This document shows, in pieces, positions 4,461 through 46,608 of a stretch of 64,000 nucleotides of DNA. Source of the stretch: Escherichia coli (GTDB taxonomy: Bacteria; Pseudomonadota; Gammaproteobacteria; Enterobacterales; Enterobacteriaceae); assembly GCF_013315695.1 (NCBI RefSeq), contig NZ_CP054353.1; one strand, 5' to 3'. Position 1 is the first letter of the stretch, and each line of letters starts with the position of its first letter. A program made the translations under genes and the position numbers. A model generated the notes under the pieces. It did not search any database. It saw only the letters and a list, made by a program, of their open reading frames with translations, and was not told where the DNA came from.

Positions 4461-4919
<459 letters not shown>

Positions 4920-8783: not shown

Positions 8784-8859
8784 GCCGATATAGCTCAGTT
8801 GGTAGAGCAGCGCATTCGTAATGCGAAGGTCGTAGGTTCGACTCCTATTATCGGCACCA
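8784..8859 (+). tRNA. thrW: tRNA-Thr (anticodon CGU)
   Basis: 76 nt, gccgatatagctcagttggtagagcagcgcattCGTaatgcgaaggtcgtaggttcgactcctattatcggcacca. It folds as a cloverleaf with an encoded CCA end, downstream of proA as in E. coli. Confidence 0.95.
8841..8859 (+). other. attL core (thrW 3' end, actcctattatcggcacca)
   Basis: Near-identical copies occur in inverted orientation at 32590..32608 (18 of 19 nt) and, degenerate, at 39506..39523. Confidence 0.75.
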
Positions 8860-8971
8860 TTCAAACATCTCCCCAAGTCTACTAAAGTCTTTCAAAACCC
8901 CTTATAATCCGCGTATTAAAGCCCCGTTCGTCTTTTGACGTCTACTAAAGTCCCTCAAAATCTACGGTCAG

Positions 8972-8993
8972 ATGGGGGTACTTATGGGGGTAT
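8972..8993 (+). repeat. Putative integrase arm-type site (atgggggtacttatgggggtat)
   Basis: The inverse complement recurs with 21 of 22 identity at 39583..39604, about 60 nt from the degenerate att copy. A third half-site, gtaccccca, lies at 9015..9023. Two copies of gtctactaaagtc sit upstream at about 8877 and 8941. Confidence 0.55.
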
Positions 8994-9024
8994 TTGCTGT
9001 TCGGTTTAGTGGAGGTACCCCCAA

Positions 9025-10239
9025 GTGAAACTCAATGCCCGTCAAATAGACACAGCCAAGCCAAAAGAGAAGGCTTACAAGCTGGCCGATGGTGGCGGTT
9101 TGTATCTCTTGGTAAAACCTAATGGAGGTAAATACTGGCGACTTAAATATCGTGTAGCTGGTAAAGAGAAGCTATTGGCACTAGGTGTTTATCCTGAGGT
9201 TACTCTAGCCGATGCTCGGGCAAAACGTGAAGATGCGAAAAGAGGTATCGCTGGTGGTATCGAACCGATGGAAGCGAAACGAGAGGAAAAGATTGCCCGG
9301 GAAACGCAGTTAAACAACACCTTCAAAGATATTGCCCTTGAGTGGCACAGCAGCAAATTAAAAAAATGGTCTGCTGGTTATGCTTCAGACATCCTCGAAG
9401 CCTTCAACAAAGATGTGTTCCCTTACATTGGCAAAAAACCCATCGCCGAAATCAAACCACTTGAACTTCTGAATGTGCTGCGTCGCATCGAGGGGCGCGG
9501 TGCTACAGAAAAAGCCAAAAAAGTGAGGCAACGGTGCGGGGAAGTTTTCCGCTATGCAATAGTCACTGGTCGCGCAGAGTATAACCCTGCACCAGACCTT
9601 ACTAGCGCGATGCAAGGCCATGAATCTAATCATTACCCTTTCCTTACAGCCAAAGAATTACCTGATTTTTTCAAGGCATTGTCCAGTTACTCAGGAAGCG
9701 CATTGGTTGTTATGGCGGCTCGTCTACTGATTATCACCGGCTTGCGGACTGGCGAACTACGTGGCGCATTATGGGATGAAATTGATTTCAACAAGGCTAT
9801 CTGGGAGATACCCGCTTCACGTATGAAAATGCGGCGGCCTCATATTGTGCCATTGTCTGAGCAGGCTCTTTCGCTTATTGGGAAGATTAGAGAAATAACA
9901 GGCAATTACCCTCTTATGTTTCCCGGGCGCAATGATCCAAGGAAAACAATGAGCGAGGCCAGCATAAACCAAGTGTTTAAGCGCATTGGCTACGCTGGAC
10001 GTGTAACTGGTCATGGGTTCCGGCACACTATGAGTACGATTTTGCATGAGCAGGGCTATAACACTGCGTGGATAGAAACGCAGCTCGCTCACGTTGATAA
10101 GAACTCAATTCGTGGCACATACAACCATGCGCAATATCTGGATGGAAGGCGGGAGATGCTTCAATGGTATGCCGACTATATGGATTCTCTCGAGCATGGC
10201 GGAAATGTGGTGCATATGGTGTTTGAAAAACACGCATGA
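9025..10239 (+). CDS. Tyrosine recombinase, P4-family integrase
   Basis: 404-aa ORF with a GTG start. The N-terminus MKLNARQIDTAKPKEKAYKLADGGGLYLLVKPNGGKYWRLKYR is typical of P4-like integrases. The C-terminus has HGFRHT and a conserved Tyr region. It sits directly next to the tRNA. Confidence 0.9.
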   Translation: MKLNARQIDTAKPKEKAYKLADGGGLYLLVKPNGGKYWRLKYRVAGKEKLLALGVYPEVTLADARAKREDAKRGIAGGIEPMEAKREEKIARETQLNNTFKDIALEWHSSKLKKWSAGYASDILEAFNKDVFPYIGKKPIAEIKPLELLNVLRRIEGRGATEKAKKVRQRCGEVFRYAIVTGRAEYNPAPDLTSAMQGHESNHYPFLTAKELPDFFKALSSYSGSALVVMAARLLIITGLRTGELRGALWDEIDFNKAIWEIPASRMKMRRPHIVPLSEQALSLIGKIREITGNYPLMFPGRNDPRKTMSEASINQVFKRIGYAGRVTGHGFRHTMSTILHEQGYNTAWIETQLAHVDKNSIRGTYNHAQYLDGRREMLQWYADYMDSLEHGGNVVHMVFEKHA

Positions 10240-10491
10240 AACAACTGGACAAGTATACAGAGGTTTACTAAAGTATAAGGGAGTAGATTGATAAAAACTC
10301 ACAGAGGATTGCTATTTAACAGTTAGCCATGGAGAAGGGCAATCGCTCTTTTAACAACGAAGATGGAATCTTCTACGCAGCTGAAAAGCTGGATGCTCTT
10401 TAACAGCCTTTGGTGCTTTTCTGATGCAGGAAAGAATAGGGATACATGCACCTTTACAATGCATGTAATGATTCATCCATGAGGCTGCGGA

Positions 10492-10515
10492 GCGCTGACA
10501 AAGCGCAATTGCTCT
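10492..10515 (+). repeat. 24-nt exact direct repeat, copy 1 (gcgctgacaaagcgcaattgctct)
   Basis: Identical to 10605..10628. It lies in the int/alpA intergenic region. Confidence 0.8.
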
Positions 10516-10604
10516 TTAACATTGATGTGGGCGGGATGGTTCGTCCCGCAGTGACCGATAGATTTCTATCGGGAAACATACAATGATTCAAATATGAATC
10601 TACG

Positions 10605-10628
10605 GCGCTGACAAAGCGCAATTGCTCT
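10605..10628 (+). repeat. 24-nt exact direct repeat, copy 2
   Basis: Identical to 10492..10515, with 113 nt spacing. The two copies fall in different reading frames, so they are not coding repeats. Confidence 0.8.
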
Positions 10629-10890
10629 CTTGCCTGCCCACCATGCCCTGAAAAAGGGCGTTCTTTAAAACTACTGGATGTCACGCCTAATAGCGTGATC
10701 CTGCCGAAATGCAGGGTAGCTCTACCCTTGTGGAGCAAACAAACCAAAACAATCTGACTATCTTTTATAAAAGACCGCAATATGTTTTTCATATTGTGGT
10801 CTTTGGCGTATTCGACATTTGACGCAAATAAAACTCTCGCCATTCGTTGCAGGAGGGGGTTATTGCGTCATTAGTACAGGATATTAATAA

Positions 10891-11094
10891 ATGGCTAATT
10901 ACAATTCATTAATTCGTCTCTCTGAAGTTCAAAGGCGAACTGGTTATAGCAAAGCATGGATTTATCGTCTTATTAGTCAGGGGAGGTTCCCTAAACAGGT
11001 AAAAATTGGAAGTCGGGCAATTGCTTTTGTTGAGTCTGAAATAGATGAATGGATTGAGAAGTGTATATTAGAATCTAGAGACGAGGTGGCCTGA
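10891..11094 (+). CDS. AlpA-family (Xis/Vis-like HTH) regulator
   Basis: 67 aa, with ...IRLSEVQRRTGYSKAWIYRLISQGRFPKQVKIGSRAIAFVESEIDEWI, the AlpA/prophage CP4-57 regulatory pattern. Confidence 0.85.
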   Translation: MANYNSLIRLSEVQRRTGYSKAWIYRLISQGRFPKQVKIGSRAIAFVESEIDEWIEKCILESRDEVA

Positions 11095-15219: not shown

Positions 15220-15583
15220 AAATGCAGAAATGGCGCTTAGCTCCGCAATCGGAGAGCAGGTGGCAAAGATTGCTGGTGCTGTGTGGATTCATAACCTTCA
15301 TTCTACTGGTGAAGAGAAAATGGCAATTCAGACGCCAGAGGGACGCACCATTACTACATCTCTGAAGCCGTCAGATGTTTGTGATCTGATTTGCGCATTC
15401 ATGTACCCAGCAATGAGGACTGTCCACGGCGATAAGTGGAAACTTGCGACAACCGCTGAATTTGATATGTGGCTAAACAATGATGGCATGCTGACTGATT
15501 ACGGAATAACCAAGTGGCAGATGCTGGTTAGCCATATCGCAAACGCTATAGACCACGTGGGGTACGGTGATGCGAAACATTGA
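15212..15583 (+). CDS. Hypothetical protein (123 aa)
   Basis: It overlaps the upstream stop. Its C-terminal motif is DGMLTDYGITKWQMLV. Confidence 0.55.
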   Translation: MRENAEMALSSAIGEQVAKIAGAVWIHNLHSTGEEKMAIQTPEGRTITTSLKPSDVCDLICAFMYPAMRTVHGDKWKLATTAEFDMWLNNDGMLTDYGITKWQMLVSHIANAIDHVGYGDAKH

Positions 15584-18326
15584 TCTTATCCGTCAGGTTA
15601 TCAGTGCGTCTGAAAACAACTGGCCTCATGTGCTGGGCTGCCTGAACATAAATGTCCCTGACTCTCCGCGCCGTCATGCTCCCTGCCCTGCATGTGGGGG
15701 CAAAGATCGATTCCGGTTCGATGACAACGGGCGCGGTAGCTTCATCTGTAATCAGTGCGGCGCTGGTGATGGGCTGGATTTAATTAAACGCGTAAATAAC
15801 TGCGACACAACAGAGGCGGCGCTTCTTGCCGCTGATGTTCTGGGTATTGATTACCGGACAACGGAAACACCAGAAGCCACCAGCCAGAAACGGGAACAAC
15901 TGGAAACCGAGCGCCAGCGACGCGAACAGGAGCGCCTGAAAAGGGCAGAGAAGGACGAACAACAAAGACGGGATACGTTTTCCCGTCAGTTTGATGACAT
16001 GCGCAGAAAGGCTGTAAACGGCAAATCTGATTATCTGGTTGCGAAAGGGGTAGGTGATTTTACATTCCCCGTGTTGCCCGATGGATCTCTGTTGCTGGCG
16101 CTGGTGGATAAATCCGGCGCAGTCACAGCAGCACAGACTATTACATCACATGGTGAAAAAAGACTCCTGACAGGTTCAGCAAAGCGGGGGGCATATCACG
16201 CCATAAACGCGCCAGAAACAACACAGAGCATCTTAATCGCAGAAGGGCTGGCAACGGCATTATCTGCCCATTTAATTCGTCCAGAGGCGCTGACAGTGGC
16301 GGCGATTGATGCCGGGAACCTGTTATATGTCGCCCAGGTACTGCGGGATAAATTTCCTTCAGCACAAATCATCATTGCTGCGGATAACGACCACAGCGAA
16401 GGAAGACAAAACACGGGGAGAATAGCAGCAGAAAAAGCAGCTTTATCTGTTTCTGGATGGGTGGCATTACCCCCGACAGATCACAAAGCAGACTGGAATG
16501 ATTACCACCAAAAACACGGCATTAAATGCGCCACAGAAGCGTTCAATAAGTCAATGTACCAACCACAGGGTAATGGCGTGAAACATGAGCCACAGACCAT
16601 TGAGGGAAGCGATTTTAAGGTTATGGATACCGACCCACTGAAACCAAGAATAGAAAGCCGCGAGGATGGTATTTATTGGGTATCTCCGAGAGCTGACAGC
16701 CAGAGTGGAGAAATCATCAATAACGAAAGCTGGTTATGTTCTCCGTTAAGCGTTATCGGTACTGGCAGAGACGATAAAGACCAGTATCTCATTCTTCGCT
16801 GGCTGTCGTTTGGTTCTGAAACGCCGACAACCGCTGCCATTCCACTGGCTGATATTGGTGAACGTGAAGGATGGCGCACACTTAAAGCTGGTGGGGTAAA
16901 TGTCACGACCAAAAGCAGCCTCAGAGCAATACTGGCAGACTGGCTACAACGCAGTGGCTCTCGTGAATTGTGGCGTGTTGCTCATGCCACTGGCTGGCAA
17001 TGCGGAGCGTACATCATGCCTGATGGGGAAATCATCGGAACACCTGAAAATCCTGTGCTGTTCAGCGGGAGAAGCTCAGCCGCAGCCGGATATACCGTCT
17101 CAGGGAGCGCGAAAAGCTGGCGTGATAACGTGGCGCGTCTGGCCTTTGGTAACTATTCAATGATGACCGGGATCGGCGCAGCACTGGCAGCGCCATTGAT
17201 TGGGCTGGTGGGCGCTGACGGGTTCGGCATTCATTTCTATGAGCAGTCGAGCGCAGGTAAGACCACCACGGCAAACGTGGCGAGCAGCTTATACGGCAAC
17301 CCTGATTTACTGCGGCTGACGTGGTACGGAACCGCGCTGGGGCTGGCAAATGAGGCCGCCGCCCACAATGACGGACTAATGCCGCTTGATGAAGTTGGTC
17401 AGGGCGCTGATCCTGTCAGCGTTTCACAGTCTGCCTATGCGTTATTTAACGGTGTAGGGAAACTGCAAGGCGCTAAAGATGGTGGAAACCGGGATCTAAA
17501 ACGCTGGCGTACAGTGGCAATCAGCACCGGAGAAATGGATTTAGAAACATTTATCGCTACTTCCGGGCGAAAAACCAAAGCCGGGCAACTGGTGCGACTG
17601 CTGAATATTCCGTTGAGTAAAGCAGTACGCTTTCACGATTACCAGAACGGAAAACAGCACGCAGACGCACTGAAAGACGCTTACCAGCATCACCACGGCG
17701 CGTCCGGGCGTGAGTGGATTAAATGGCTGGCAGACCACCAGCAACAGGCTATTAAAACCGTTCGTGACTGCGAAAGCAGATGGAGAAGCCTGATCCCATC
17801 CGATTATGGTGAGCAGGTTCACCGTGTAGCCGCGCGATTTGCCATTCTGGAGGCCGCATTGTTGTTAGGCGAGGTTGTAACAGGCTGGGATGCTCAGACA
17901 TGCCGTGATGCGATACAGCACAGCTATAACGCATGGTTGCGCGAGTTCGGCACAGGTAACAAAGAGCATCAGCAGATTATTGAACAAACGGAGGCATTTC
18001 TTAATGCCTATGGGCTTAGCCGTTTTGCACCATTTCCATACAGCCCGGCAGATTTGCCCATCAAAGATTTAGCCGGATACCGTCAGCGTGGAGAACATGA
18101 CGAAAGCCCAATGATTTTCTACACATTCCCGGCCACATTTGAAAAGGAGATCGCATGTGGTTTCAACGCAAAACAGTTTGCTGAAGTGTTGAAAAAAGCC
18201 GGGATGCTAACCCCACCAAACAGCGGTCGTGGATACCAAAGAAAATCACCACGTATTCAGGGACGACAAATAAACGTTTATGTACTCAATTACCAGCCAG
18301 GAGATTATAACTCATCTGAAGAATGA
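15567..18326 (+). CDS. Primase-helicase (P4 alpha-like: Zn-ribbon, Toprim, DUF927-type NTPase)
   Basis: 919 aa. It has CPACGGKDRFRF...FICNQCG (Zn ribbon), IIAADNDHSEGRQNTG (Toprim acidic motif) and a Walker A-like YEQSSAGKTT. The start could be GTG 15567 or ATG 15570. Confidence 0.9.
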   Translation: MMRNIDLIRQVISASENNWPHVLGCLNINVPDSPRRHAPCPACGGKDRFRFDDNGRGSFICNQCGAGDGLDLIKRVNNCDTTEAALLAADVLGIDYRTTETPEATSQKREQLETERQRREQERLKRAEKDEQQRRDTFSRQFDDMRRKAVNGKSDYLVAKGVGDFTFPVLPDGSLLLALVDKSGAVTAAQTITSHGEKRLLTGSAKRGAYHAINAPETTQSILIAEGLATALSAHLIRPEALTVAAIDAGNLLYVAQVLRDKFPSAQIIIAADNDHSEGRQNTGRIAAEKAALSVSGWVALPPTDHKADWNDYHQKHGIKCATEAFNKSMYQPQGNGVKHEPQTIEGSDFKVMDTDPLKPRIESREDGIYWVSPRADSQSGEIINNESWLCSPLSVIGTGRDDKDQYLILRWLSFGSETPTTAAIPLADIGEREGWRTLKAGGVNVTTKSSLRAILADWLQRSGSRELWRVAHATGWQCGAYIMPDGEIIGTPENPVLFSGRSSAAAGYTVSGSAKSWRDNVARLAFGNYSMMTGIGAALAAPLIGLVGADGFGIHFYEQSSAGKTTTANVASSLYGNPDLLRLTWYGTALGLANEAAAHNDGLMPLDEVGQGADPVSVSQSAYALFNGVGKLQGAKDGGNRDLKRWRTVAISTGEMDLETFIATSGRKTKAGQLVRLLNIPLSKAVRFHDYQNGKQHADALKDAYQHHHGASGREWIKWLADHQQQAIKTVRDCESRWRSLIPSDYGEQVHRVAARFAILEAALLLGEVVTGWDAQTCRDAIQHSYNAWLREFGTGNKEHQQIIEQTEAFLNAYGLSRFAPFPYSPADLPIKDLAGYRQRGEHDESPMIFYTFPATFEKEIACGFNAKQFAEVLKKAGMLTPPNSGRGYQRKSPRIQGRQINVYVLNYQPGDYNSSEE

Positions 18327-18348
18327 GCTTCTTCATGTGCGTAGAAAA

Positions 18349-18455
18349 GGTGTTGGTTCAGTTGGTTCAATTTGTAAAGAGTATTGTTTTATAAGGATTT
18401 TATTCTTTTTATTGAACCAACACTGAACCAACAACACGGTATTTTGAACCAACAC
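18349..18455 (+). repeat. Iteron origin-like structure A
   Basis: Two direct gttggttca units, then atttgtaaaga and an AT-rich spacer, then three inverted units tgaaccaaca. It lies right after the primase-helicase gene. The same architecture occurs at 41538..41682. Confidence 0.6.
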
Positions 18456-18773
18456 AATGTGACTGAATTGATGCGCACAACACCTGGCTGGCATCAGAGA
18501 GTGTTTTACGAGACTTTCGTAAAATCCTGTGTACAAGGGCGTGACGTTTTTGAAAGTGAGCACTACGAAATTTTCGTAGTTCAGAAAACAGCCTCTGAGA
18601 AGTTGTTATGCCTGTTCAGCAAACCATCCGCATAGCTGATCGCGAATCAAATTACCAATGGAGCCAGAAGCAAGGGCAGAACTGAAAAGCGCCTGCCGTG
18701 AAGAGTAATGCGACACCATAAATATAGTTTTTAGAGTCCATAAAAAACCTGTCAAAACCTGACACACAGAACG

Positions 18774-19079: not shown

Positions 19080-19541
19080 ATGGAACTAAAATTTATTGAT
19101 AACCCTGTGCGATTACAGGCCTTTCTTAACGAGCCAGGCAATACCGAAAATATTGTTGAGCCGGGGCACACGTACTACATCAAGCCTGATGCGGTATATC
19201 TCGGCATCTACGAAGGATTAGTGCTGGCTGGCGTTCATGAAGTGCGTAACTTCTGGCATAGCGTTGTTGAATGCCATGCGGTGTACGACCCCGGATTCCG
19301 TGGTGAATATGCACTGCAAGGACATCGATTATTCTGCAAATGGCTTCTCGAAAACTCACCATTCCTTAACAGCATTACCATGGTTCCTGACACCACGAAA
19401 TACGGACGGGCAATTATCCGTTTGCTTGGCGCTACCCGTGTTGGTCATCTTGATGATGCTTATATCAGATGTGGTAAACCCGTCGGCGTAACGCTTTATC
19501 AGTTAACTCGGCAACAATATAAGGAATTCAGCGAATGTTAA
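19080..19541 (+). CDS. P22 gp14-like protein (ejection-protein assembly factor family)
   Basis: 153 aa. The assignment rests on its position directly upstream of the gp7/gp20/gp16-like genes, its size, and a recollection that gp14 belongs to a DUF2824-type family. Confidence 0.45.
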   Translation: MELKFIDNPVRLQAFLNEPGNTENIVEPGHTYYIKPDAVYLGIYEGLVLAGVHEVRNFWHSVVECHAVYDPGFRGEYALQGHRLFCKWLLENSPFLNSITMVPDTTKYGRAIIRLLGATRVGHLDDAYIRCGKPVGVTLYQLTRQQYKEFSEC

Positions 19542-20212
19542 TTACCCATATAGCTTATAAACATCTCAATCGTGCCGTATACGAAAAAGGCGGTGATGGT
19601 GGTGCCTCTAAAGCTCAGGCGAAGGCCCAGCAGCAGGCAATTGATTTGCAGCGCGAGCAGTGGAATACGGTGATGAATAATCTCAAGCCGTATGCAGAAG
19701 TCGGATTGCCTGCTTTACAACAACTACAAGGACTGATGACTCTGGAAGGGCAGAATAAAGCCGCGAATGATTTCTTTGGTTCTGGTTTATATAAAACACA
19801 GGCAGATCAGGCCCGTTATCAGAACCTTGTCTCAGCAGAAGCTACCGGGGGGCTTGGCTCAACAGCTACCAGTAACCAGTTATCTTCCATTGCGCCCATG
19901 CTTTATAACAATTGGCTCAGTGGGCAAATGCAAAATTATGGAAACCTGCTAAATGTCGGGATGAATGCGGCATCAGGGCAGGCAACAGCAGGGCAAAACT
20001 ACGCCAATAATACCGGACAACTCTTGCAGGGGCTTGGCGCTATTCGTGCAGGTCAGGCGCAGCAGCCATCCAGTCTTGCGCGTGGTATTGGTGGGGCGGC
20101 ATCAGGCGCTTTAGCGGGTGCGCAACTTGGTTCCGTTGTTCCGGGTATAGGTAATGTCGCCGGGGCTATTGGTGGTGGGCTTATTGGTCTTGTTGGGGGG
20201 CTTGGATTCTAA
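19535..20212 (+). CDS. P22 gp7-like ejection (DNA transfer) protein
   Basis: 225 aa. It has YEKGGDGGASKAQAKAQQQAIDLQREQW...KPYAEVGLPALQQLQ and a Gly-rich C-terminus, as in podovirus gp7-type DNA transfer proteins. Its start overlaps the upstream stop. Confidence 0.65.
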   Translation: MLITHIAYKHLNRAVYEKGGDGGASKAQAKAQQQAIDLQREQWNTVMNNLKPYAEVGLPALQQLQGLMTLEGQNKAANDFFGSGLYKTQADQARYQNLVSAEATGGLGSTATSNQLSSIAPMLYNNWLSGQMQNYGNLLNVGMNAASGQATAGQNYANNTGQLLQGLGAIRAGQAQQPSSLARGIGGAASGALAGAQLGSVVPGIGNVAGAIGGGLIGLVGGLGF

Positions 20213-21630
20213 TGGCGACATGGCAACTTGGCGGGCTGCCTAGCATGGCACCGCAAAATGATAATGCTCCTCGTTCTTCCGTTCCTCAGCCTGTGCAGTA
20301 TCAGCAGCAGCCAAACGTAGGTTTAATGGCGCTACAGGGGCTAAGAGGCGTTGCTGAGATTAATCAGCAGGCACGTCAACAACAGCGTAAAGCAGAGTTT
20401 CAGAAAGCATATGCCGGGGCTTTTGAGTCTGGAGACAGAAACAAAATGCGCAGTCTTATTTCTGAGTATCCAGAAGAATTTGAAAGCGTTCAGAAAGGGA
20501 TGGGCTTTATTGATGACGACCAGAGAAATTCTATTGGTCATCTTGCGACTAGTGCTCAAATCGCATCTTCGCTCGGAACTGGGGCATTTGGAAAATTCAT
20601 AGCAGATAACGAAGATGAAATGCGTCGTTTGGGAATTTCTCCTGAGTCTGTTGCCGAAATGCATGTTAATGATCCACAGGGATTCCAGCGGCTTGCTGGT
20701 AGTATGGCACTGTTTTCTCTCGGTCATGAGAAGTACTTCGATATCAAAGATCGAATGGAAGGTCGGGATATTGAGCGTGGCAAGTTGGCAGAGACGATCC
20801 GCAGCAATCAAGCCGGAGAAGCACTTCAGGCGAGAGGGCAGGATATTAGCCGAGCAAATGCGTTAACGTCAGCATATGCACCAACAGCCGCAATGCAGAA
20901 TTACAATCAATACGCGCAAATGTTAAAGGCGGATCCAGAGGGGGCTGCGGCATTTGCGGCAGCGGCTGGAATTAATACAAACGCCAAAAAATTAATGAGT
21001 GTTAGAGAAAACGATGATGGCACTGTCACAAAATACTACACAGACGGAAGTGAAGAGCAGGGAAAACTAAACCAGCCAATATCTGGAGATGGGTTTCGTC
21101 CAATAGCTTTGCCAACAGCCCAAAAGATCATGGAAAAGTCGCCAGAAGGGGCTAAAAAAGCTGCTGGATTTGCATACAGAGTTAGGGATGCTCTTGATTC
21201 AATAGATACACTGAAAGACCAGCTTAGCCCACAGCGAGTGGCGATCATTAATAATGCTTTGGGTAATGGGACGCTGGCTAACTTAACGCTCAGCCCAACA
21301 GAGCAGCAATACGTTGTTAATGCTAATGACGCAATAATGGCAATACTCCGTCAGGAAACAGGGGCATCTATCCTACCAGCTGAAATGTCCAAATATTATC
21401 AAATGTATTTCCCTCAGCCTGGTGATTCCACAAAAACCATTGATACCAAGCGTAGGAAGATGGAAAACCAGTTCAATTCGCTGAAAGCTGCTTCTGGTCG
21501 AGCTTATGATGCTTTGCGGGTTATTTCAGCAGTTGACAGAGGAACTTCTTCTTCGTCGCAGACATTGCCGCAATCTGAGCAGGTATCACAGCCAGCAGTA
21601 ATTTTTCTTCACTATGGGGTGATTAGGTAA
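20212..21630 (+). CDS. P22 gp20-like ejection protein; last codons replaced by IS1 sequence
   Basis: 472 aa (P22 gp20 is about 471 aa from memory). TAATG overlap with the gp7-like gene. IS1 starts at 21626. The reconstructed ancestral end is ...HYGVING-stop. Confidence 0.6.
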   Translation: MATWQLGGLPSMAPQNDNAPRSSVPQPVQYQQQPNVGLMALQGLRGVAEINQQARQQQRKAEFQKAYAGAFESGDRNKMRSLISEYPEEFESVQKGMGFIDDDQRNSIGHLATSAQIASSLGTGAFGKFIADNEDEMRRLGISPESVAEMHVNDPQGFQRLAGSMALFSLGHEKYFDIKDRMEGRDIERGKLAETIRSNQAGEALQARGQDISRANALTSAYAPTAAMQNYNQYAQMLKADPEGAAAFAAAAGINTNAKKLMSVRENDDGTVTKYYTDGSEEQGKLNQPISGDGFRPIALPTAQKIMEKSPEGAKKAAGFAYRVRDALDSIDTLKDQLSPQRVAIINNALGNGTLANLTLSPTEQQYVVNANDAIMAILRQETGASILPAEMSKYYQMYFPQPGDSTKTIDTKRRKMENQFNSLKAASGRAYDALRVISAVDRGTSSSSQTLPQSEQVSQPAVIFLHYGVIR

Positions 21631-21640
21631 TGACTCCAAC

Positions 21641-22144
21641 TTATTGATAGTGTTTTATGTTCAGATAATGCCCGATGACTTTGTCATGCAGCTCCACCGA
21701 TTTTGAGAACGACAGCGACTTCCGTCCCAGCCGTGCCAGGTGCTGCCTCAGATTCAGGTTATGCCGCTCAATTCGCTGCGTATATCGCTTGCTGATTACG
21801 TGCAGCTTTCCCTTCAGGCGGGATTCATACAGCGGCCAGCCATCCGTCATCCATATCACCACGTCAAAGGGTGACAGCAGGCTCATAAGACGCCCCAGCG
21901 TCGCCATAGTGCGTTCACCGAATACGTGCGCAACAACCGTCTTCCGGAGCCTGTCATACGCGTAAAACAGCCAGCGCTGGCGCGATTTAGCCCCGACATA
22001 GCCCCACTGTTCGTCCATTTCCGCGCAGACGATGACGTCACTGCCCGGCTGTATGCGCGAGGTTACCGACTGCGGCCTGAGTTTTTTAAGTGACGTAAAA
22101 TCGTGTTGAGGCCAACGCCCATAATGCGGGCTGTTGCCCGGCAT
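21641..22144 (-). CDS. insB: IS1 InsB' frame (made as an InsAB' fusion by -1 frameshift)
   Basis: 167-aa ORF identical in all complete IS1 copies in the window. Confidence 0.9.
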
Positions 22145-22338
22145 CCAACGCCATTCATGGCCATATCAATGATTTTCTGGTGCGTACCGGGTTGAGAAGC
22201 GGTGTAAGTGAACTGCAGTTGCCATGTTTTACGGCAGTGAGAGCAGAGATAGCGCTGATGTCCGGCGGTGCTTTTGCCGTTACGCACCACCCCGTCAGTA
22301 GCTGAACAGGAGGGACAGCTGATAGAAACAGAAGCCAC
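22063..22338 (-). CDS. insA: IS1 InsA
   Basis: 91 aa starting [30 protein letters not shown]. Confidence 0.92.
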
Positions 22339-22611
22339 TGGAGCACCTCAAAAACACCATCATACACTAAATCAGTAAGTTGGCAGCATCACCGAATAAA
22401 CGTATCCTCACGATTGCGCCATTCTTCTTACCGATATTCTGACACACATCATTAACTTTCTATTTTACTCTTTTCTCCACCATAAAATCAATAAAAGCAC
22501 TAACAGTAATTATAAATAAAAACAAAGCCAAAAATCTTGGTTCCAAAACTGGTAACAACTAACCAGTTTAAATATACGCATCAAAATCAGATAAACATTT
22601 GAGGTATTGTC

Positions 22612-24281: not shown

Positions 24282-25143
24282 CTGGGGATGTATCTTCCTG
24301 TTCATTTAAGGTCAACTGCCTGACGTTTCTCTCCGAATATTCCATTATATTAATGTTGACTTGTTGACCAGCTTCGCCCTGTATGCTGGCATCAACTCTA
24401 TTTTAGACTGAACACGTCACTCAGTTTCCTCCCTTTGCGACGCAGCCTGCATTTACACTCAAACTATTAAGATGATAAATGTGGTAAATCTGTTGGTACT
24501 GGCATAAAAACGTTTACGCCACAGGAACGGCCTGATCCATCGGTAACCCCATCGCCGACGTTCGAGTGCCAGTTAGAGTAACGCGCACAGATGACTGAAT
24601 GCAGTGCCCTGGCAAAGAGGCCATCGTTCCTGTGACAACTGGCAGTCTTCGTTTAACTTCACTTAATTTGGCTCTTAGGGGGCTTACCGGACATGATGAC
24701 GTACTTACACCTGTTTAATTTTTCATCACTTATTGGAGTGAACACCCATAACCATTTTGTGCGGCATGTTAACCCATTAAAACACCTTACTGATTGGCAA
24801 ATCATCTTTAATTATGACTCATGATAGTTTTATATTCTATTTCTTATCATTTAAACTTGTTTTTTTACTAGTCCATTACACAACACATTAAGACTATTCC
24901 TAACACCTCAGGGCAAAGTTCCTGGCTAATATAAAATGCAAGTAAGAATTGAACGTTATATTGCCAATAACCTTATGAAACTGAATGTCTTTTTCTTCTT
25001 ATCAAAAAAGCAATATTTTCATTTTTTGTAAATATTGACTTAACCATGGAATTCATTTTCTGTTCACATATTGACACTCATCAGGAAAAAAACATAAATT
25101 TAAACCTAATCGAAATAATTAAAACTTAGGTAATGACTCCAAC

Positions 25144-25647
25144 TTATTGATAGTGTTTTATGTTCAGATAATGCCCGATGACTTTGTCATGCAGCTCCAC
25201 CGATTTTGAGAACGACAGCGACTTCCGTCCCAGCCGTGCCAGGTGCTGCCTCAGATTCAGGTTATGCCGCTCAATTCGCTGCGTATATCGCTTGCTGATT
25301 ACGTGCAGCTTTCCCTTCAGGCGGGATTCATACAGCGGCCAGCCATCCGTCATCCATATCACCACGTCAAAGGGTGACAGCAGGCTCATAAGACGCCCCA
25401 GCGTCGCCATAGTGCGTTCACCGAATACGTGCGCAACAACCGTCTTCCGGAGCCTGTCATACGCGTAAAACAGCCAGCGCTGGCGCGATTTAGCCCCGAC
25501 ATAGCCCCACTGTTCGTCCATTTCCGCGCAGACGATGACGTCACTGCCCGGCTGTATGCGCGAGGTTACCGACTGCGGCCTGAGTTTTTTAAGTGACGTA
25601 AAATCGTGTTGAGGCCAACGCCCATAATGCGGGCTGTTGCCCGGCAT
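25144..25647 (-). CDS. insB: IS1 InsB' frame
   Basis: Identical 167-aa ORF. Confidence 0.9.
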
Positions 25648-25841
25648 CCAACGCCATTCATGGCCATATCAATGATTTTCTGGTGCGTACCGGGTTGAGA
25701 AGCGGTGTAAGTGAACTGCAGTTGCCATGTTTTACGGCAGTGAGAGCAGAGATAGCGCTGATGTCCGGCGGTGCTTTTGCCGTTACGCACCACCCCGTCA
25801 GTAGCTGAACAGGAGGGACAGCTGATAGAAACAGAAGCCAC
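25566..25841 (-). CDS. insA: IS1 InsA
   Basis: Identical 91-aa ORF. Confidence 0.92.
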
Positions 25842-25896
25842 TGGAGCACCTCAAAAACACCATCATACACTAAATCAGTAAGTTGGCAGCATCACC

Positions 25897-31997: not shown

Positions 31998-32385
31998 ATT
32001 TACCCTGTTTGTTTAATTATGTTGTACACCTCTTCAGGAGTATTCATAAAACAAGGCAAATGTAAAGAACTGTATTGTTTTGTATAACCACATGGTTACC
32101 TAATCGCCAATTAATATAAGCTCCATTATTTCTCCATATTTTTATGTTAGAAGTGACAAGGAGAAATGTAATGTTTCTCTCAGAGAATATAAATCATTCC
32201 TTTTGCACACCTTAATGGTGGGCTTTTTTATGCAAAACCTGAACGTCCTGTGGTATTACTCTGGCATAATGATTTTCGCGATTAACCAACAACCAGACCA
32301 GCAAAGACGCCACCACAAGCACAGCAACATCCATCAGGCTTGCCACACCCCATATGTGCGGCTCAAAGCCGCCATGGCATATTAA

Positions 32386-32583
32386 TCCGCTTGCCATTTT
32401 CGAACAGCTGATTGGTTTAGTCCGGTGTTTCCCTGCTTGCACTTAAAAATGAGCGGATGGGAAACTCTCGAAATGGTTCGTCGATATGCTCACCTTTCAG
32501 TCAGGCATTTCACCGCGCACGCGAGCAAAATCAAAGGCACAAGAGGAGAACGTAGTTTACTTAAATGTGAGATAACTTATTGA
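32386..32583 (+). pseudogene. 3' fragment of a lambdoid/P22-type tyrosine integrase
   Basis: It reads ...CHFRTADWF...MSGWETLEMVRRYAHLSVRHFTAHASKI, carrying the HxxR and catalytic Tyr box. The frame is closed by a stop at 32383..32385. The fragment ends 7 nt before the att repeat, which is the attL-int geometry of a lambdoid prophage when viewed in the ancestral orientation. Confidence 0.55.
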
Positions 32584-32589
32584 TTTAAA

Positions 32590-32608
32590 TGGTGCCGATA
32601 AGAGGAGT
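32590..32608 (-). other. thrW 3'-end repeat (att copy), inverted in the present arrangement
   Basis: tggtgccgataagaggagt is the reverse complement of actcctCttatcggcacca. This matches thrW 8841..8859 at 18 of 19 positions. Confidence 0.75.
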
Positions 32609-41221: not shown

Positions 41222-41503
41222 CTACCTTTGCCTCTTGCCGCCATTTAACCGGAAGGCGTTACCGTTCGGTTGCGCTATCCCCATGCGGTGTTGCGTTTCG
41301 GTAACAGCTTTATGCAGGTCGCCAAATTCCTCAACCTTCACGGGCGGGCGCTTCACGTTCTCCAGACACGTTTCACGGCGGCGCTTTATCCATTCCCGAT
41401 CATCGTCCTCGGTGCATAACAGCATGACTTCCATCCATCGTGCGGCAGCTCTCCGGTATAGCCCTTTTGACTCCAGCTCTTCAGCTTTCCTGTCCCTTAT
41501 CAT
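41222..41503 (-). CDS. PerC-family transcriptional activator
   Basis: 93 aa. MIRDRKAEELESKGLYRRAAARWMEVMLL matches the PerC/Pch N-terminal signature. Confidence 0.75.
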   Translation of the reverse strand: MIRDRKAEELESKGLYRRAAARWMEVMLLCTEDDDREWIKRRRETCLENVKRPPVKVEEFGDLHKAVTETQHRMGIAQPNGNAFRLNGGKRQR

Positions 41504-41780: not shown

Positions 41781-42236
41781 ATGGTCTTTGCAATGAGCAA
41801 ATCTAATCTGGTCGCGTTCCGCATCCCATCTGAATTGCAGGATGAGTTTAATCGGTCTGTTCTCGCTTCTGGAGGAGATAAAACCTCCTGGCTTGTTGAT
41901 GCGATTCGCATGAAGCTGGGGCAGCCGGAAAAGTCTATTGATTCACGAATGCTTGGGCTGGTGGAGCGCATGGAAAAAGCCGCTGCGTCGCTTATTGCCG
42001 GAAAGCCGAACATCCCACCAAAACCATATAACGAAACGGCAGTTATAAAGATCATTGCCGATACCATCCAACAGGGATTTGATAATGGGCGTGTGATAGC
42101 TGAACGGATCAATGAAGCAGGCTATCAAACAAAAGCTGGTAAAGCGTGGGATAAAGATATTTACAGCGCGTGGAAGCGTCAGGGAAGCAATGCTGAAAAG
42201 CTAAAAGCAGTGATTGATTGTAAGGTCAGCGTATAA
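41781..42236 (+). CDS. Putative DNA-binding protein (N-terminal ribbon-helix-helix, C-terminal HTH-like)
   Basis: 151 aa. SNLVAFRIPSELQDEFNRSVLASGGDKTSWLVDAIRMKL is CopG/Arc-like. An inverted repeat, atacagt-ggtat-actgtat, lies just upstream (about 41738..41756). Confidence 0.5.
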   Translation: MVFAMSKSNLVAFRIPSELQDEFNRSVLASGGDKTSWLVDAIRMKLGQPEKSIDSRMLGLVERMEKAAASLIAGKPNIPPKPYNETAVIKIIADTIQQGFDNGRVIAERINEAGYQTKAGKAWDKDIYSAWKRQGSNAEKLKAVIDCKVSV

Positions 42237-42315: not shown

Positions 42316-42537
42316 ATGAAAGGCAGAACGCCACACATTGAACATCAAGCCAACCACTTCCCTGATGTTCGCAATGAGATGATTGCCATTCGCGGTGATA
42401 TGCACGGATTGGAGCGTCGAATTATTGATAAGATTGATGAAAATAGAGATAAGGCCAGTGAAAATCAAAAGTGGATCATCGGCCTGTTGATTTTATCAAT
42501 TCTTATCCCGCTACTTATCGCATTGGTCACAAAATGA
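42316..42537 (+). CDS. XhlA-like small membrane protein
   Basis: 73 aa. It has a coiled-coil N-terminus and a single C-terminal TM helix (WIIGLLILSILIPLLIALV), as in the XhlA family. Confidence 0.5.
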   Translation: MKGRTPHIEHQANHFPDVRNEMIAIRGDMHGLERRIIDKIDENRDKASENQKWIIGLLILSILIPLLIALVTK

Positions 42538-42560
42538 ATATCCAATGTGTATGCTGTCGA

Positions 42561-42593
42561 TGCTACGCGCGCGTACTTGTCGCAAAATATCAG
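42561..42593 (+). repeat. (CG)n-palindrome repeat, copy B (tgctacgcgcgcgtacttgtcgcaaaatatcag)
   Basis: It contains the 12-bp palindrome tacgcgcgcgta, 24 nt after the XhlA-like stop. Confidence 0.7.
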
Positions 42594-42800
42594 GCAAAGG
42601 CCAGATTCAGAAAGTCGTGATAACCACCAGCACAACATGAGAGGTCATGTAACGCGATTTATCACACCAGATACATGTGATTGGTGTACCCGCATAAAAC
42701 ATCGTCATAGCGCGTCCTGTGCGCATATACGCCGATAATCAACACATCACCACCACTCTGTCTCATGTAGAGAACAGTTTTATGGTATCCCCCGCCATCG

Positions 42801-42948
42801 TGTGCGTACTGGTCGGACGCAGTTGCAAAAAATTTTGCAACTGATACCCCTCGCGCGCGTACTGGTCACGAAATTGGTGTTTTGCTGTGGCAGTGATATC
42901 AGAAAAATCTTCCTGTTTCACATAAAGCGGATATGCGCGTACTGTAAC
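42801..42948 (+). repeat. Three further GYGCGTACTKGT copies plus a 10-bp inverted repeat
   Basis: The copies are gtgcgtactggtc (42802), gcgcgtactggtc (42854) and gcgcgtactgtaa (42935). The inverted repeat agttgcaaaa-aa-ttttgcaact lies at 42821..42842. Confidence 0.6.
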
Positions 42949-43058
42949 GGCCCCATCAACTGGGAGCGGACTTGAAATCCCGACCCAAGCTATGTACCAA
43001 ATGCCATGTCTTGGATATATGATGATTGCCATTCTAAACAACGCTAAAGGGGGTTGGT

Positions 43059-43673
43059 GTGAGCAGAAAAGATACTAAAGAATTGCTAACTATCTGCATG
43101 GTGTACTTTTCAATTTATTTTTGTGCATACATGATAGTCCCAGATGAGTTTGAACATGGCAGTATTATTTATTCCATAACATTCTATTTTTTAGAGCTAA
43201 CACCAATTTTGGCTATCCTTTTGGGAATACATATTTATTTTTCCTTAAAAAAAGAATCGACTAATTGGGAGAAGGTATGGAGAGACAGAGGATTTCTAAC
43301 ATCACCTAAAGATGATGCATATGAGAGTGATTTTTCTGACTTTATAACAAACTACTACTCCAGCGAACAATTCAAAAATAGACTGTCTGATGTTTGGGAA
43401 ACAGCAATGTATTCCATAGGGATTATATTATTGATACTTACTGGTATTGCTCAATATGTTTTTAACATTGACTTATCATTAAATCCTGAAAATTTAATAT
43501 CGCCATTGATTTTTGGTGAGATATTGATCTTCTCATTCGGAATTTTCTTGAGTGTTGTTCTCTGCTCATTATGCAAGCTACTGACTAACAGGTATCCGGG
43601 TGAAGCAAGGAGAGCAAGAAAGGCAAATCCATATTATCTTTTATTTCCTAATGGAGACAGCAGAGATATCTAA
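43059..43673 (+). CDS. Four-TM membrane protein, moron-like (sits where P22 carries sieA)
   Basis: 204 aa with a GTG start after a strong SD (aaaggggg). It has four hydrophobic segments and is visibly AT-rich. It is divergent from the gp16-like gene in the ancestral orientation. Confidence 0.6.
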   Translation: MSRKDTKELLTICMVYFSIYFCAYMIVPDEFEHGSIIYSITFYFLELTPILAILLGIHIYFSLKKESTNWEKVWRDRGFLTSPKDDAYESDFSDFITNYYSSEQFKNRLSDVWETAMYSIGIILLILTGIAQYVFNIDLSLNPENLISPLIFGEILIFSFGIFLSVVLCSLCKLLTNRYPGEARRARKANPYYLLFPNGDSRDI

Positions 43674-43692
43674 GCCATCCATGGCTAACCAG

Positions 43693-45798
43693 TTATTGAG
43701 CTTCTTTTTGTGATGCCTGTGCGACTCTGGTGAGCGATTGTGTGACCGTACTGATCGCTCTGTCATATGCTGTGCTACCTTTTGGCGTATTTGCCAGACG
43801 TAACAAGGCATTTCGTATAACAGGGCTTTCGTATGCCTTCGCTGCTCCGCCTACGGCACCAGCAGCAGGAACAACAAACGCAGCCGTTTTTAGCATCCCC
43901 GCTAATACTGCTGCGTTTATGATGCCACCACCAACTAACAATCCATAAAGCTGCTGACCATTTAAGTTTTGAACGTTCGCTTTTGCCGCGTGTCTTGTAT
44001 CGTTGAGGTATTTAATAACGCCGTCCAGTTCCTTTCCATGTACGCCTTTAAAGAAAGTTGCTGATTGCTTCCTGTTCCGGTGTAACGCATTAATAAACTT
44101 CTCAACACTGATATTTCCAGACGGATCAGTCGCCTTATCTACAGCATTCTGAACTATGGCTGCTCGTGCGTTTTGCCTACCATTGTCATCCAGAAGCCTG
44201 TAAAGCTGAGAACGTTCTGATGGGCTTTGGCTAAAAACGAGTTTTGTTACATCCTCAGGCGTGGCCTTACCGCTGGCTATTGCCTTTTGAACGCGCGTTC
44301 TTCCCATCATGTCATTGAATTTAGACCATGACCGATCAACCCTTGCCATATTAATGGCTTCGTCTGCTCCAAGATTTTTGGCTACGGCTTTTTTCATATC
44401 CGCCGTATATGCCTTGTAGATAATATCGCTGGCTTTCTGGAGCGTATCTTTATCAACAGTGTCAGATGACGCCATAAATCGCTTTCGAAGATCGGTTCTG
44501 TTTTCCCTCGCCAGACGCAGGTCATTTGGTCCGCTGGTGATATCGTCTTTAAATTGCTGCAAGACTTTTACCGCGGCTCTATCCTGAGATTTGCCCGGGC
44601 GGCTTAACACGGCAATCTGATTGTCGATAGCTTTTACCGTGTTTGAGAGATCGACAGGGGTATCCCCCATAGCGTCAATTATGCGGTTATATCGCTTTCC
44701 TGCTGCCTCAATGAATTTTTGTTGCCCTTTAGTCGCAGATTCATAAAGCTGTTTATCAGAAATGCCACCCAGACCATCGCTAAATGTTCTGACTAAATTT
44801 TCTCGTGCTTGTTGTTGATTCAGCCGATTCTTACCGGTTCCAAAAAAAGGAACTCTTTCGCCTAATGTCTGAGCCTGACTCTGCATAAAGGTTTTATCTT
44901 TCAGCATGTCACTGGTCATTAACGGCAGATTTCTTTCCGATGCAAAGTTGACAGCAGCCTTTGCTTCAGGCGACATATCACCACGAACAGCCCTCGAAAC
45001 CGCACTCGCTGTATTTTCCAGCCCCTTACCAATACCACCAATGCCAGCAGAAATTACCGTTTGTAACGGATCAATATCTTCTCCACCAGCAAGGCTGGTG
45101 GCTCCCTGTAGTGCTAAATCTGTAGCTGCTGATTTTCCTATGGCACCAAGCACCGTTCCAGCCCTGCCCGCTGGTGTAAACGCCAGCGCATTAGCCAGAA
45201 ACGATGCCACGTCTTGCGGCGATAAACCCGGCTTGTTCAGAGCATAATCACCGGATGGCAGGGAAACGATAGTGTTACCCTTCTCATCCTGCCTTAATTT
45301 CGCTCCCATGCTCTGAAGAATCTTTTCCTGAGATGCGTCAGAGCCGAAAAGTTGAGACCATCGAGCTTTTAGAGCACCCATGCTGAGTGAGGTTAACTCT
45401 GGGGCAAGGTCGACATTTTGCAGTCTCTCCATCTCTGGAGTCATTCGGCTTTCGCCTGTTATAGCATCGCGCATCGCAGCCCCAAGACTGGCTCCCTGTT
45501 CTGCTGAACGCTCAAGCCCCTCTCTTTGCTGAGTAGCTAACTTTGCATACCCTGACGCAAGAGAATTATCAGATGATGTATGTTGAATATTTTGAGTTGC
45601 TGATTGGGATCGGTCTATTTCATTCGTTGATGGTAGTGGATAGGCAGCATAAAAAGCCTGCTTAGCCTGCGCTACACTTTCTCCGGCTTGCGGGGCCACG
45701 ACTTCATTGAAGTATTGCTCCTGAGCCTGCGCTTTTTGTTCTGGTGCTAACGCCTGATACTGTGGAGAGGCGATAACATCTTTCCATGCTTTAGCCAT
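43693..45798 (-). CDS. P22 gp16-like ejection protein
   Basis: 701 aa starting MAKAWKDVIASPQYQALAPEQKAQAQEQYFNEVV. It is Ala/Gln/Gly-rich. In the reconstructed ancestral sequence its ATG overlaps the gp20-like stop (ATGGCTAA). Confidence 0.55.
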   Translation of the reverse strand: MAKAWKDVIASPQYQALAPEQKAQAQEQYFNEVVAPQAGESVAQAKQAFYAAYPLPSTNEIDRSQSATQNIQHTSSDNSLASGYAKLATQQREGLERSAEQGASLGAAMRDAITGESRMTPEMERLQNVDLAPELTSLSMGALKARWSQLFGSDASQEKILQSMGAKLRQDEKGNTIVSLPSGDYALNKPGLSPQDVASFLANALAFTPAGRAGTVLGAIGKSAATDLALQGATSLAGGEDIDPLQTVISAGIGGIGKGLENTASAVSRAVRGDMSPEAKAAVNFASERNLPLMTSDMLKDKTFMQSQAQTLGERVPFFGTGKNRLNQQQARENLVRTFSDGLGGISDKQLYESATKGQQKFIEAAGKRYNRIIDAMGDTPVDLSNTVKAIDNQIAVLSRPGKSQDRAAVKVLQQFKDDITSGPNDLRLARENRTDLRKRFMASSDTVDKDTLQKASDIIYKAYTADMKKAVAKNLGADEAINMARVDRSWSKFNDMMGRTRVQKAIASGKATPEDVTKLVFSQSPSERSQLYRLLDDNGRQNARAAIVQNAVDKATDPSGNISVEKFINALHRNRKQSATFFKGVHGKELDGVIKYLNDTRHAAKANVQNLNGQQLYGLLVGGGIINAAVLAGMLKTAAFVVPAAGAVGGAAKAYESPVIRNALLRLANTPKGSTAYDRAISTVTQSLTRVAQASQKEAQ

Positions 45799-45862
45799 TA
45801 ATCACCCGGTGATGCTGCCAACTTACTGATTTAGTGTATGATGGTGTTTTTGAGGTGCTCCA

Positions 45863-46138
45863 GTGGCTTCTGTTTCTATCAGCTGTCCCTCCTGTTCAGC
45901 TACTGACGGGGTGGTGCGTAACGGCAAAAGCACCGCCGGACATCAGCGCTATCTCTGCTCTCACTGCCGTAAAACATGGCAACTGCAGTTCACTTACACC
46001 GCTTCTCAACCCGGTACGCACCAGAAAATCATTGATATGGCCATGAATGGCGTTGGATGCCGGGCAACAGCCCGCATTATGGGCGTTGGCCTCAACACGA
46101 TTTTACGTCACTTAAAAAACTCAGGCCGCAGTCGGTAA
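45863..46138 (+). CDS. insA: IS1 InsA
   Basis: Identical 91-aa ORF. Confidence 0.92.
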
Positions 46139-46560
46139 CCTCGCGCATACAGCCGGGCAGTGACGTCATCGTCTGCGCGGAAATGGACGAACAGTGGGGC
46201 TATGTCGGGGCTAAATCGCGCCAGCGCTGGCTGTTTTACGCGTATGACAGGCTCCGGAAGACGGTTGTTGCGCACGTATTCGGTGAACGCACTATGGCGA
46301 CGCTGGGGCGTCTTATGAGCCTGCTGTCACCCTTTGACGTGGTGATATGGATGACGGATGGCTGGCCGCTGTATGAATCCCGCCTGAAGGGAAAGCTGCA
46401 CGTAATCAGCAAGCGATATACGCAGCGAATTGAGCGGCATAACCTGAATCTGAGGCAGCACCTGGCACGGCTGGGACGGAAGTCGCTGTCGTTCTCAAAA
46501 TCGGTGGAGCTGCATGACAAAGTCATCGGGCATTATCTGAATATAAAACACTATCAATAA
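46057..46560 (+). CDS. insB: IS1 InsB' frame
   Basis: Identical 167-aa ORF. The frameshift A-run ttaaaaaac lies within the insA/insB overlap. Confidence 0.9.
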
Positions 46561-46608
46561 GTTGGAGTCATTACCCGTTTATTCATAATAAATCTCCTGA
46601 AAGTTTAG

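Follow-up and report, generated by a model that had tools for sequence, protein, structure and literature searches.

Phage-inducible chromosomal islands (PICIs) of Gram-negative bacteria are recognized by an integrase, an AlpA-type regulator and a pri-rep gene, arranged unidirectionally at a specific attachment site (Fillol-Salom et al. 2018, PMC6092414). As in the Staphylococcus aureus pathogenicity islands (SaPIs), their replication origin lies immediately 3' of rep or pri-rep and consists of short iterons in two opposed sets around an AT-rich region (PMC9371898; PMC6092414). One compact iteron block of this kind, located by rep, was proposed as a hallmark of the family. In the case of SaPI Rep, the hexamer uses its C-terminal winged helix to bind iterons that flank the AT-rich region on both sides, directly 3' of rep, and the protein melts this region without ATP (PMC9371898). 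Here we consider a 64-kb stretch of the Escherichia coli chromosome at thrW (contig NZ_CP054353.1; overall GC content 48%), which is called the window below and is near-identical to strain MSB1_4I. It contains an integrated PICI-like island encoding a 919-aa primase-helicase-initiator (Pri-Rep) and two repeat loci, A and B. The earlier note on this DNA took the loci for a duplicated element; comparison with relatives did not bear this out, and we consider it likely that A is the left module and B the right module of one Rep-iteron replication origin, the two being non-identical halves of a composite structure which is contiguous in most relatives and was later separated in this island.

Iteron sites located far apart are also found in P4 and R6K. 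Replication of P4 requires both ori and crr in cis, and in the gamma/alpha/beta system of R6K a pi-bound iteron array acts over kilobases on distant sites with the same iterons by protein-mediated DNA looping. According to the annotated P4 record (X51522), crr (4291-4590) starts 46 bp after the stop codon of alpha, and each of its 120-bp units contains a pair of tandem iterons (9-bp period), a spacer of 35 nt and 31% GC, and inverted iterons. The ori iterons (9310-9413) lie 4.7 kb off and have the same module layout, with a spacer of 17% GC.

The three features on which our analysis is centred are the following.

15567..18326, plus strand: Pri-Rep, 919 aa, with a Zn ribbon and Toprim primase, a DUF927 helicase and a C-terminal domain that appears winged-helix-like
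18342..18493, plus strand: putative left origin module (locus A), equivalent in position and sequence to the left module of the compact origins L024, L004, L040, L005, L006, L033, L046, L050 and L036
41504..41678, minus strand (ancestral orientation relative to Pri-Rep): putative right origin module (locus B), assigned by an alignment of 16 right modules

The nine-base word GTTGGTTCA is present in 13 exact copies in the window, and all 13 fall within loci A and B. Simple arithmetic predicts about 0.5 copies of an exact 9-mer in 64 kb on both strands, thus chance similarity is ruled out. Matches with one mismatch outside the loci (13) are dispersed singletons; shuffled sequences predict 16 for all matches with at most one mismatch. 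In locus A, the first unit begins 25 nt after the last base of the pri-rep stop codon. Following an AAAAGGT lead-in, two tandem units (18352-18369) are succeeded by a 43-nt spacer of 16% GC (18370-18412) and by three inverted units (18413-18421, 18424-18432 and 18445-18453), spaced by 11 and 21 nt, and a centre motif, CTGGCTGGCA, lies at 18484-18493. Locus B contains five tandem units (41540-41584), a 43-nt spacer of 19% GC (41585-41627), which ends on the minus strand with TCTTTACAAAT, and three inverted units (41628-41636, 41649-41657 and 41670-41678), spaced by 21 and 21 nt. At both loci the tandem array is followed by ATTTGTAAAGA. On the minus strand of locus B, ACCTTTTTGCTTATCTATATAAT (41504-41539) fills the interval between the tandem array and the start codon of a PerC gene, which it abuts. 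Locus-to-locus comparison revealed similarity from AAAAGGT to the third inverted unit and unrelated flanks. The layout, the unit counts and the unrelated flanks agree with those given in the earlier note; what it overlooked is the difference in spacing of the inverted units (11/21 versus 21/21), and this is precisely the difference between left and right modules in compact origins.

The evidence for a composite origin comes from 77 loci, referred to here by L numbers, which encode relatives of the 919-aa protein and were taken from species-representative genomes. An iteron cluster begins 24-60 nt after the Pri-Rep stop in nearly every one of these loci, as counted over about 55 relatives. In at least 22 loci it forms part of a compact composite origin, one mirror-symmetric block that takes up the first 300-400 bp after the stop. 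Its left module comprises two or three tandem iterons, ATTTGTAAAGA with an AT-rich spacer of about 45 nt, and three or four inverted iterons spaced by 11 and 21 bp. The centre, of about 35 bp, carries CTGGCTGGCAG and is followed by zero to two extra iterons. The right module is built of one to three direct iterons spaced by 21 bp, a second spacer and three tandem inverted iterons, and the block ends with a TTTTGCTTATATATA box, after which the next gene follows. At least seven iteron words are used (TTGGTTCA, TTGTCTCA, CGGTTCA, ACGGGTTA, GTCGGGTA, GTGGGTTA and TGGGATAA), and within every lineage both modules carry the same word. Such sharing between modules, combined with variation between lineages, is the signature of sites read by one element-encoded protein, and this co-variation strongly supports the proposal of the earlier note that loci A and B are predicted binding sites of the primase-helicase.

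When placed against this plan, locus A matches the left module (11/21 spacing, centre motif at 18484-18493), and beyond the centre motif it diverges from compact origins. Locus B, once reverse-complemented, matches the right module: its inverted units are spaced by 21 and 21 nt, and TCTTTACAAAT, the tandem array and the TATA box are all present. When 16 right modules were aligned, some from compact and others from split origins, the iterons, AAAACAA..TCTTTACAAAT, the tandem array and TTTTGCTTATATATA proved to be conserved, and the upstream flanks unrelated. Since A and B differ exactly as the left and right modules of compact origins do, they are not duplicates. A scan of IMG/VR added about 16 further compact origins and seven contigs in which an A-type module is paired with a B-type one; no terminal overlap, and hence no sign of circularity, was found in whole IMG/VR contigs of 12-15 kb. 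Megablast of loci A and B against a phage collection returned essentially no matches.

Two further features of these origins deserve mention. The spacer of the right module occurs in two forms, AT-rich (...AAAACAA..TCTTTACAAAT), as in the window, and GC-rich (aaacccagtgctggcgcgg...). The forms were noted across L004, L005, L006, L008, L022, L033, L040, L046 and the PICI EcCICFT073 (L081:7175-7220), where the GC-rich spacer has hairpin potential (ttactggc / gccagtaa); they may correspond to different functions of the right module. The centre motif CTGGCTGGCA(G), situated between the modules, reads GCTGGTGG, the E. coli Chi sequence, in some relatives (L035, L061 and L004 were examined), and it is the breakpoint of the cargo insertion in the window lineage.

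Separation of the two modules is not confined to the window. The mirrored tandem array was located with each locus's own iteron word, and its distance was counted from the stop codon. In compact origins it lies at +255 to +345. In split origins it is found at +437 (L049), +665 (L042, word GGTCGGTT), +1224 (L062) and +2343 (L061), and at +4.9 to +9.1 kb in L035, L013, L060, L020, L055, L021 and L026. Split origins sharing one word across modules separated by 0.2-10 kb occur in Lonsdalea, Rosenbergiella, Chimaeribacter, Pantoea, Cedecea, Serratia, Leclercia and Limnobaculum (the last with GGTCGGTT). Split and compact states are intermingled on the Pri-Rep tree, as in the sister pairs L013/L046, L020/L040 and window/L004, and the left junctions vary, some retaining CTGGCTGGCA and others breaking directly after the third inverted iteron. 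This pattern points to several independent events or to modular reshuffling.

Nine E. coli copies were sampled for co-occurrence of A and B, and each of the nine has perfect units in both modules; the copies occupy two attachment sites (thrW and yicC-dinD) and have different integrases. The modules are 1.8-12 kb apart in un-inverted copies, and in DLI.6n, cq9, CRE1540, AH25, 04-00955 and ARS-C301 they lie inside one island with one integrase. Seven of the nine copies contain exactly 3+3 perfect units at each module, so the two and five tandem units of the window are best regarded as slippage variants, as had been supposed. MSB1_4I has four tandem units at B, against five in the window, while being identical to it over the 601-bp locus-A region (100%) and 98.5% identical over the locus-B region. 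The length of the tandem array is labile elsewhere too, the left module of L062 having seven units. Nothing beyond this variation supports the tuning of copy number that had been suggested alongside slippage. The same A junction is present in about 330 of 5,426 complete E. coli genomes, and intact siblings are common. A sibling record, NZ_CP148430.1, is closed and circular (12,152 bp) and encodes a Pri-Rep identical at 914 of 919 residues; island DNA of this type can thus be recovered as a circle. Both modules are present there, 1.8 kb apart and with junction sequences as in the window, and the phage ejection-protein cassette found between the modules in the window lineage is absent. This indicates that splitting occurred first and that the ejection genes entered the gap later.

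The architecture of Pri-Rep agrees with a SaPI-type initiator fused to a primase. Over residues 8-362 the protein shares 33% identity with the primase domain of P4 alpha (E = 3e-41), and its remainder has no similarity to alpha. Residues 404-814 align with the SaPI replication initiator 8TCH (E = 1.5e-11) and weakly with 5DGK, the SCCmec Cch helicase; this DUF927 MCM-like ATPase core is homologous to the solved Rep and Cch structures. Residues 601-919 were modelled with AlphaFold, and the model is confident across the last ~100 residues; the C-terminal domain (about residues 815-912) appears winged-helix-like.

On these grounds the element appears to be a member of the PICI/SaPI class of Rep-iteron origins in a split configuration. 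The similarities to this class include an origin immediately downstream of the initiator gene (locus A, with two tandem and three inverted units around its AT-rich spacer), an initiator of the self-loading DUF927/MCM-like helicase type, and a primase fusion; the winged helix at the C-terminus of SaPI Rep may have a counterpart in the C-terminal domain of our protein. The gene context is also shared, with int, alpA, pri-rep, ori and PerC in one direction of transcription. PICI-encoded PerC was described (PMC6092414) and is a typical accessory gene of such islands. The gene organization of the window island, with thrW, a P4-type integrase, AlpA and Pri-Rep all on the plus strand, is that of a PICI, and its siblings reside at yicC-dinD, a listed PICI attachment site. 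The island departs from the single contiguous origin block by pri-rep (PMC6092414) in that, in the E. coli lineage and several other genera, the modules are separated by 1.8-10 kb of cargo; it differs also in carrying genes for P22-type ejection proteins. A PICI is further expected to replicate autonomously from its pri-rep plus ori segment and to need a helper phage for induction and packaging (PMC6092414); the closed circular sibling record and the related origins in IMG/VR contigs bear on this circumstantially. A two-module composite logic can be recognized in an origin of demonstrated activity, as the rep-ori segment of EcCICFT073 drives plasmid replication (PMC6092414). In this origin (L081:7005-7240) a tandem pair of units of the CTGGCTACC type (sequence CTGTCTACC) is followed by an AT-rich stretch and inverted units, and these by a hairpin spacer rich in GC and a tandem pair of inverted units; the 584-aa Pri-Rep of EcCICFT073, however, has no BLASTP similarity to the 919-aa protein. 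EcCIRM13514, a published PICI at yicC-dinD, was considered as an example of the present replicon and rejected, as it encodes a different Pri-Rep of 607 aa. Neither the mirror-symmetric two-module structure nor its splitting was found to be described in the literature, which was searched to a limited extent.

Comparison with P4 gave a divided result. The analogy to its ori and crr, drawn in the earlier note, holds for the layout: in both elements two iteron-bearing cis sites are kilobases apart, one of them just after the primase-helicase stop, and a module is composed of tandem iterons with a 9-10 bp period, an AT-rich spacer of 35-43 nt and inverted iterons. It holds also for the homologous N-terminal Zn-ribbon and Toprim primase, and both elements have a P4-type integrase and an AlpA/Vis-like regulator. 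It does not extend to the helicase and origin-binding part, which is not of the alpha type but resembles DUF927, SaPI Rep and Cch proteins. Other differences are the iteron (TGTTCACC in P4 versus GTTGGTTCA here) and the structure of crr, which consists of two direct repeats of 120 bp instead of one mirrored module and in whose units the tandem pair is distal to alpha; for P4, no relative with a contiguous origin is known among those examined. R6K is a precedent for iteron origins with parts that act over a distance; its pi protein, however, is an unrelated Rep_3-type non-helicase that needs host DnaA and DnaB, and the mirrored two-module design is missing from it.

Surroundings of the modules in the window are given below.

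8784-8859, plus strand: thrW tRNA-Thr (ARAGORN), at the island left end, which spans 8784..11094
9025-10239, plus strand: P4-type tyrosine integrase (Pfam Arm-DNA-bind_3, Phage_int_M and Phage_integrase)
10891-11094, plus strand: AlpA (Pfam Phage_AlpA PF05930, E = 7e-20)
19080..21625, plus strand: first part of the cargo, P22-type ejection genes gp14-like (DUF2824), gp7 and gp20 (Pfam DUF2824, P22_gp7 and Inj_translocase)
21626..22394, plus strand: IS1 interrupting the ejection cassette, one end of the inversion (window self-BLAST; MSB1_4I annotation)
25129-25897, plus strand: third copy of IS1 (window self-BLAST)
41222..41503, minus strand: PerC-family regulator (Pfam PerC, E = 3.7e-30), transcribed outwards from the tandem-iteron side of that module (locus B)
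41781..42236, plus strand: p151, a protein of unknown function (no Pfam family; a weak PHROG of unknown function), transcribed outwards from the opposite side of locus B
42316..45806, minus strand: remaining ancestral cargo, now inverted (PHROGs)
42316-42537, plus strand: p73 (PHROGs)
43059-43673, plus strand: 204-aa open reading frame (ORF), weakly SieA-like (PHROGs)
43693-45798, minus strand: gp16-like DNA-transfer / transglycosylase protein (PHROGs)
45807..46575, minus strand: inverted copy of IS1, the other end of the inversion (collinearity with L003 and cq9)

Genes for AntA/B, DUF4222 and Ash and several small ORFs are also found on the same strand downstream of the tRNA-Thr gene. The 3' end of gp20 is truncated by IS1. 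L003 and cq9 are collinear with the window up to position 21625 and then run straight into 45807 and downwards, the two collinear blocks overlapping by 9 bp, which is consistent with an IS1 target-site duplication. The order of chromosomal genes between the inversion IS1 copies is reversed relative to DLI.6n. These two observations show that the earlier reconstruction of an inversion between IS1 copies was correct. Loci A and B were ancestrally about 7.3-7.4 kb apart, in inverted orientation and in one island, in agreement with the orientation and the distance of about 7.4 kb calculated before; they are now 23 kb apart and in direct orientation.

Several other features of this region were noted. 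The inversion, of about 24 kb (21626-46575), encloses ykgR/M/O, truncated ecpC with ecpDE, ykgJ and yagU, and also the region of a second integrase and the right-hand portion of the island. The third IS1 (25129-25897) marks a deletion in which ecpBAR and ykgL were lost, and a fourth, partial IS1 is located at the window end (63495-64000). Between yagU and the island right end (~32200-39700) an unrelated second tyrosine integrase with DUF6538 and Phage_integrase domains (32695-34029) is accompanied by integrase fragments, a truncated ORF, a 'phage baseplate protein' and IS2; in DLI.6n the pao operon occupies this place, and the second-integrase region is probably a remnant of another element. 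The ejection set in the island is complete (gp14-like DUF2824, gp7, gp20 and gp16-like) and is placed between the origin halves. A PICI-like island supplying its own ejection proteins would be unusual, and this hints at a P22-like helper phage. Locus B is situated between the divergent genes for PerC and p151. In relatives the right module is followed by a PerC or an SSB-like gene, and in most split origins examined (L013, L020, L021, L026, L060, L061 and L062) a p151 homolog abuts it. Just upstream of p151 (41733-41765) the window has a separate short repeat, TATAACAGTGTTATACAGTGGTATACTGTATGG, which reads GTAAGACAnnGTAAGACA in most relatives (L013, L020, L021, L022, L024, L026, L040 and L060) and accompanies p151 regardless of whether iterons lie next to it; it resembles an operator bound by another DNA-binding protein.

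The course of events that we propose would begin with the usual state of the family, in which mirror-image modules lie side by side, inside the first 300-400 bp after the pri-rep stop. In the window lineage, accessory DNA would have been inserted between the centre motif CTGGCTGGCA and the right module. The insert is ~1.8 kb in the circular sibling and would have reached ~7.3 kb in the ancestor of the window copy, the P22-type ejection cassette having already been gained. The inversion between IS1 copies would then have moved the right module to a distance of 23 kb, flipped it to direct orientation and broken the island. As to the function of the origin, homology with SaPI/PICI Rep suggests that hexameric Pri-Rep would bind the 9-bp iterons through its putative C-terminal winged-helix domain, melt the 43-nt AT-rich spacer between the opposed iteron sets and load itself as the replicative helicase, after which its primase domain, homologous to that of P4 alpha, would make primers.

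A number of observations weigh against this reading and have to be considered together with the other explanations. Binding, melting and firing by Pri-Rep at A and B are predictions from analysis, and the correlation between C-terminal-domain identity and iteron word is a loose trend that we did not use as evidence: the identity is lowest in ACGGGTTA lineages, and some same-word lineages are equally low. The A/B pair in this strain is probably a fossil, because IS1 breaks the island. The right spacer of many compact origins is rich in GC instead of AT, which means that the right module is not always a plausible melting site. No right module was seen in 14 relatives in which up to 10 kb of DNA was searched, thus it may be dispensable or may lie farther off. 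Moreover, besides a compact origin of its own with TGGGATAA iterons, L057 (Serratia oryzae) contains an orphan module of the right type, which carries TTGGTTCA iterons, lies at about +6185 from the Pri-Rep stop and is near-identical to its counterpart in L035. Such modules can thus persist, or travel, where a cognate initiator is missing, and this mismatch of initiator and iterons suggests that right modules move between islands by recombination.

One could imagine that the split state represents an obligate bipartite origin of the P4 kind, one module being the start (ori) and the other an enhancer required in cis (crr), bridged by Pri-Rep with the cargo looped out. The position and layout of P4 crr and ori, the homology of the primase domains, and perfect iterons in both modules at separations of up to 10 kb, in many genera and in every E. 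coli copy sampled, speak for such an arrangement, and the retention of perfect iterons in both separated modules suggests selection on both. Nevertheless, we regard it as doubtful, given that the helicase and origin-binding part of Pri-Rep is not alpha-like, that each module alone has the full SaPI-type layout with two opposed iteron sets around an AT-rich region, and that the 14 relatives mentioned above show no right module within 10 kb. The completeness of each module could also mean that there are two independent, redundant SaPI-type origins back to back, each self-sufficient and each perhaps loading one helicase that serves a single direction of the fork. In both modules of the window, a 43-nt spacer of 16-19% GC lies between opposed iteron sets, and the mirror symmetry of AT-rich-type compact origins (L036, L050 and L024) would fit oppositely oriented loading sites. 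We regard this possibility as equally doubtful, as the GC-rich, hairpin-like right spacer of many compact origins would be a poor site of melting, and the modules are consistently non-identical (11/21 versus 21/21, with the TATA box on the right only), which suggests different roles.

A further possibility is that module B is mainly a Rep-controlled regulatory region, its tandem iterons serving as an operator of PerC and its phased iterons acting beside a p151 promoter, so that accessory gene expression would be coupled to the level of Rep. The location of B between PerC and p151, with the last tandem unit 36 nt from the PerC ATG, is compatible with this possibility, and so are the TTTTGCTTAT(A/C)TATA box conserved after the tandem array in 16/16 aligned right modules and the start of the next gene, always shortly after the box in compact origins. 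A consensus scan, however, found no sigma-70-like promoter at locus A or B, thus a promoter role of the TATATA box can be no more than presumed, and a 21-bp phasing of iterons with a conserved AT-rich spacer is typical of origins. We consider a mainly regulatory module unlikely, although regulation would be compatible with an origin role. Finally, the heavily rearranged thrW region with its second integrase, and the existence of orphan right modules such as that of L057, could evoke a recent segmental duplication or a leftover of a second tandem island. These explanations, together with chance similarity, were rejected as highly improbable: the left/right differences between A and B, the six islands that contain both modules with one integrase, the 12.2-kb circle, and the 13 exact 9-mers against about 0.5 expected all contradict them. 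Two modules of one composite origin, separated after its formation, thus remain the explanation that we favour.

A more far-reaching idea, which we offer tentatively, is that the origin centre might be a recurrent, tolerated insertion point for cargo, the halves cooperating over 1-10 kb through looping by Pri-Rep. Contiguous PICI origins and the P4 ori/crr pair could then represent alternative states of a single ancestral design, with cargo like the ejection cassette lying topologically inside the origin.

For the window itself the finding is mostly explanatory, its island copy being broken by IS1. For annotation it carries a warning that an island origin may occupy two places and that the genes between them, here those of P22-type ejection proteins, belong to the island. 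Within a large Enterobacterales Pri-Rep family, the origin has a two-module mirror design, more elaborate than one compact block, and it was repeatedly split by cargo, to about 10 kb, with both halves intact. The natural series of separations (0, 0.2, 0.4, 1.2, 1.8, 2.3 and 5-10 kb) could be used to probe what constitutes the minimal PICI origin. It also bears on whether the halves act independently or cooperate, and on whether the unexplained ori/crr arrangement of P4, to which the split origin connects PICI origin design, arose in a similar way.

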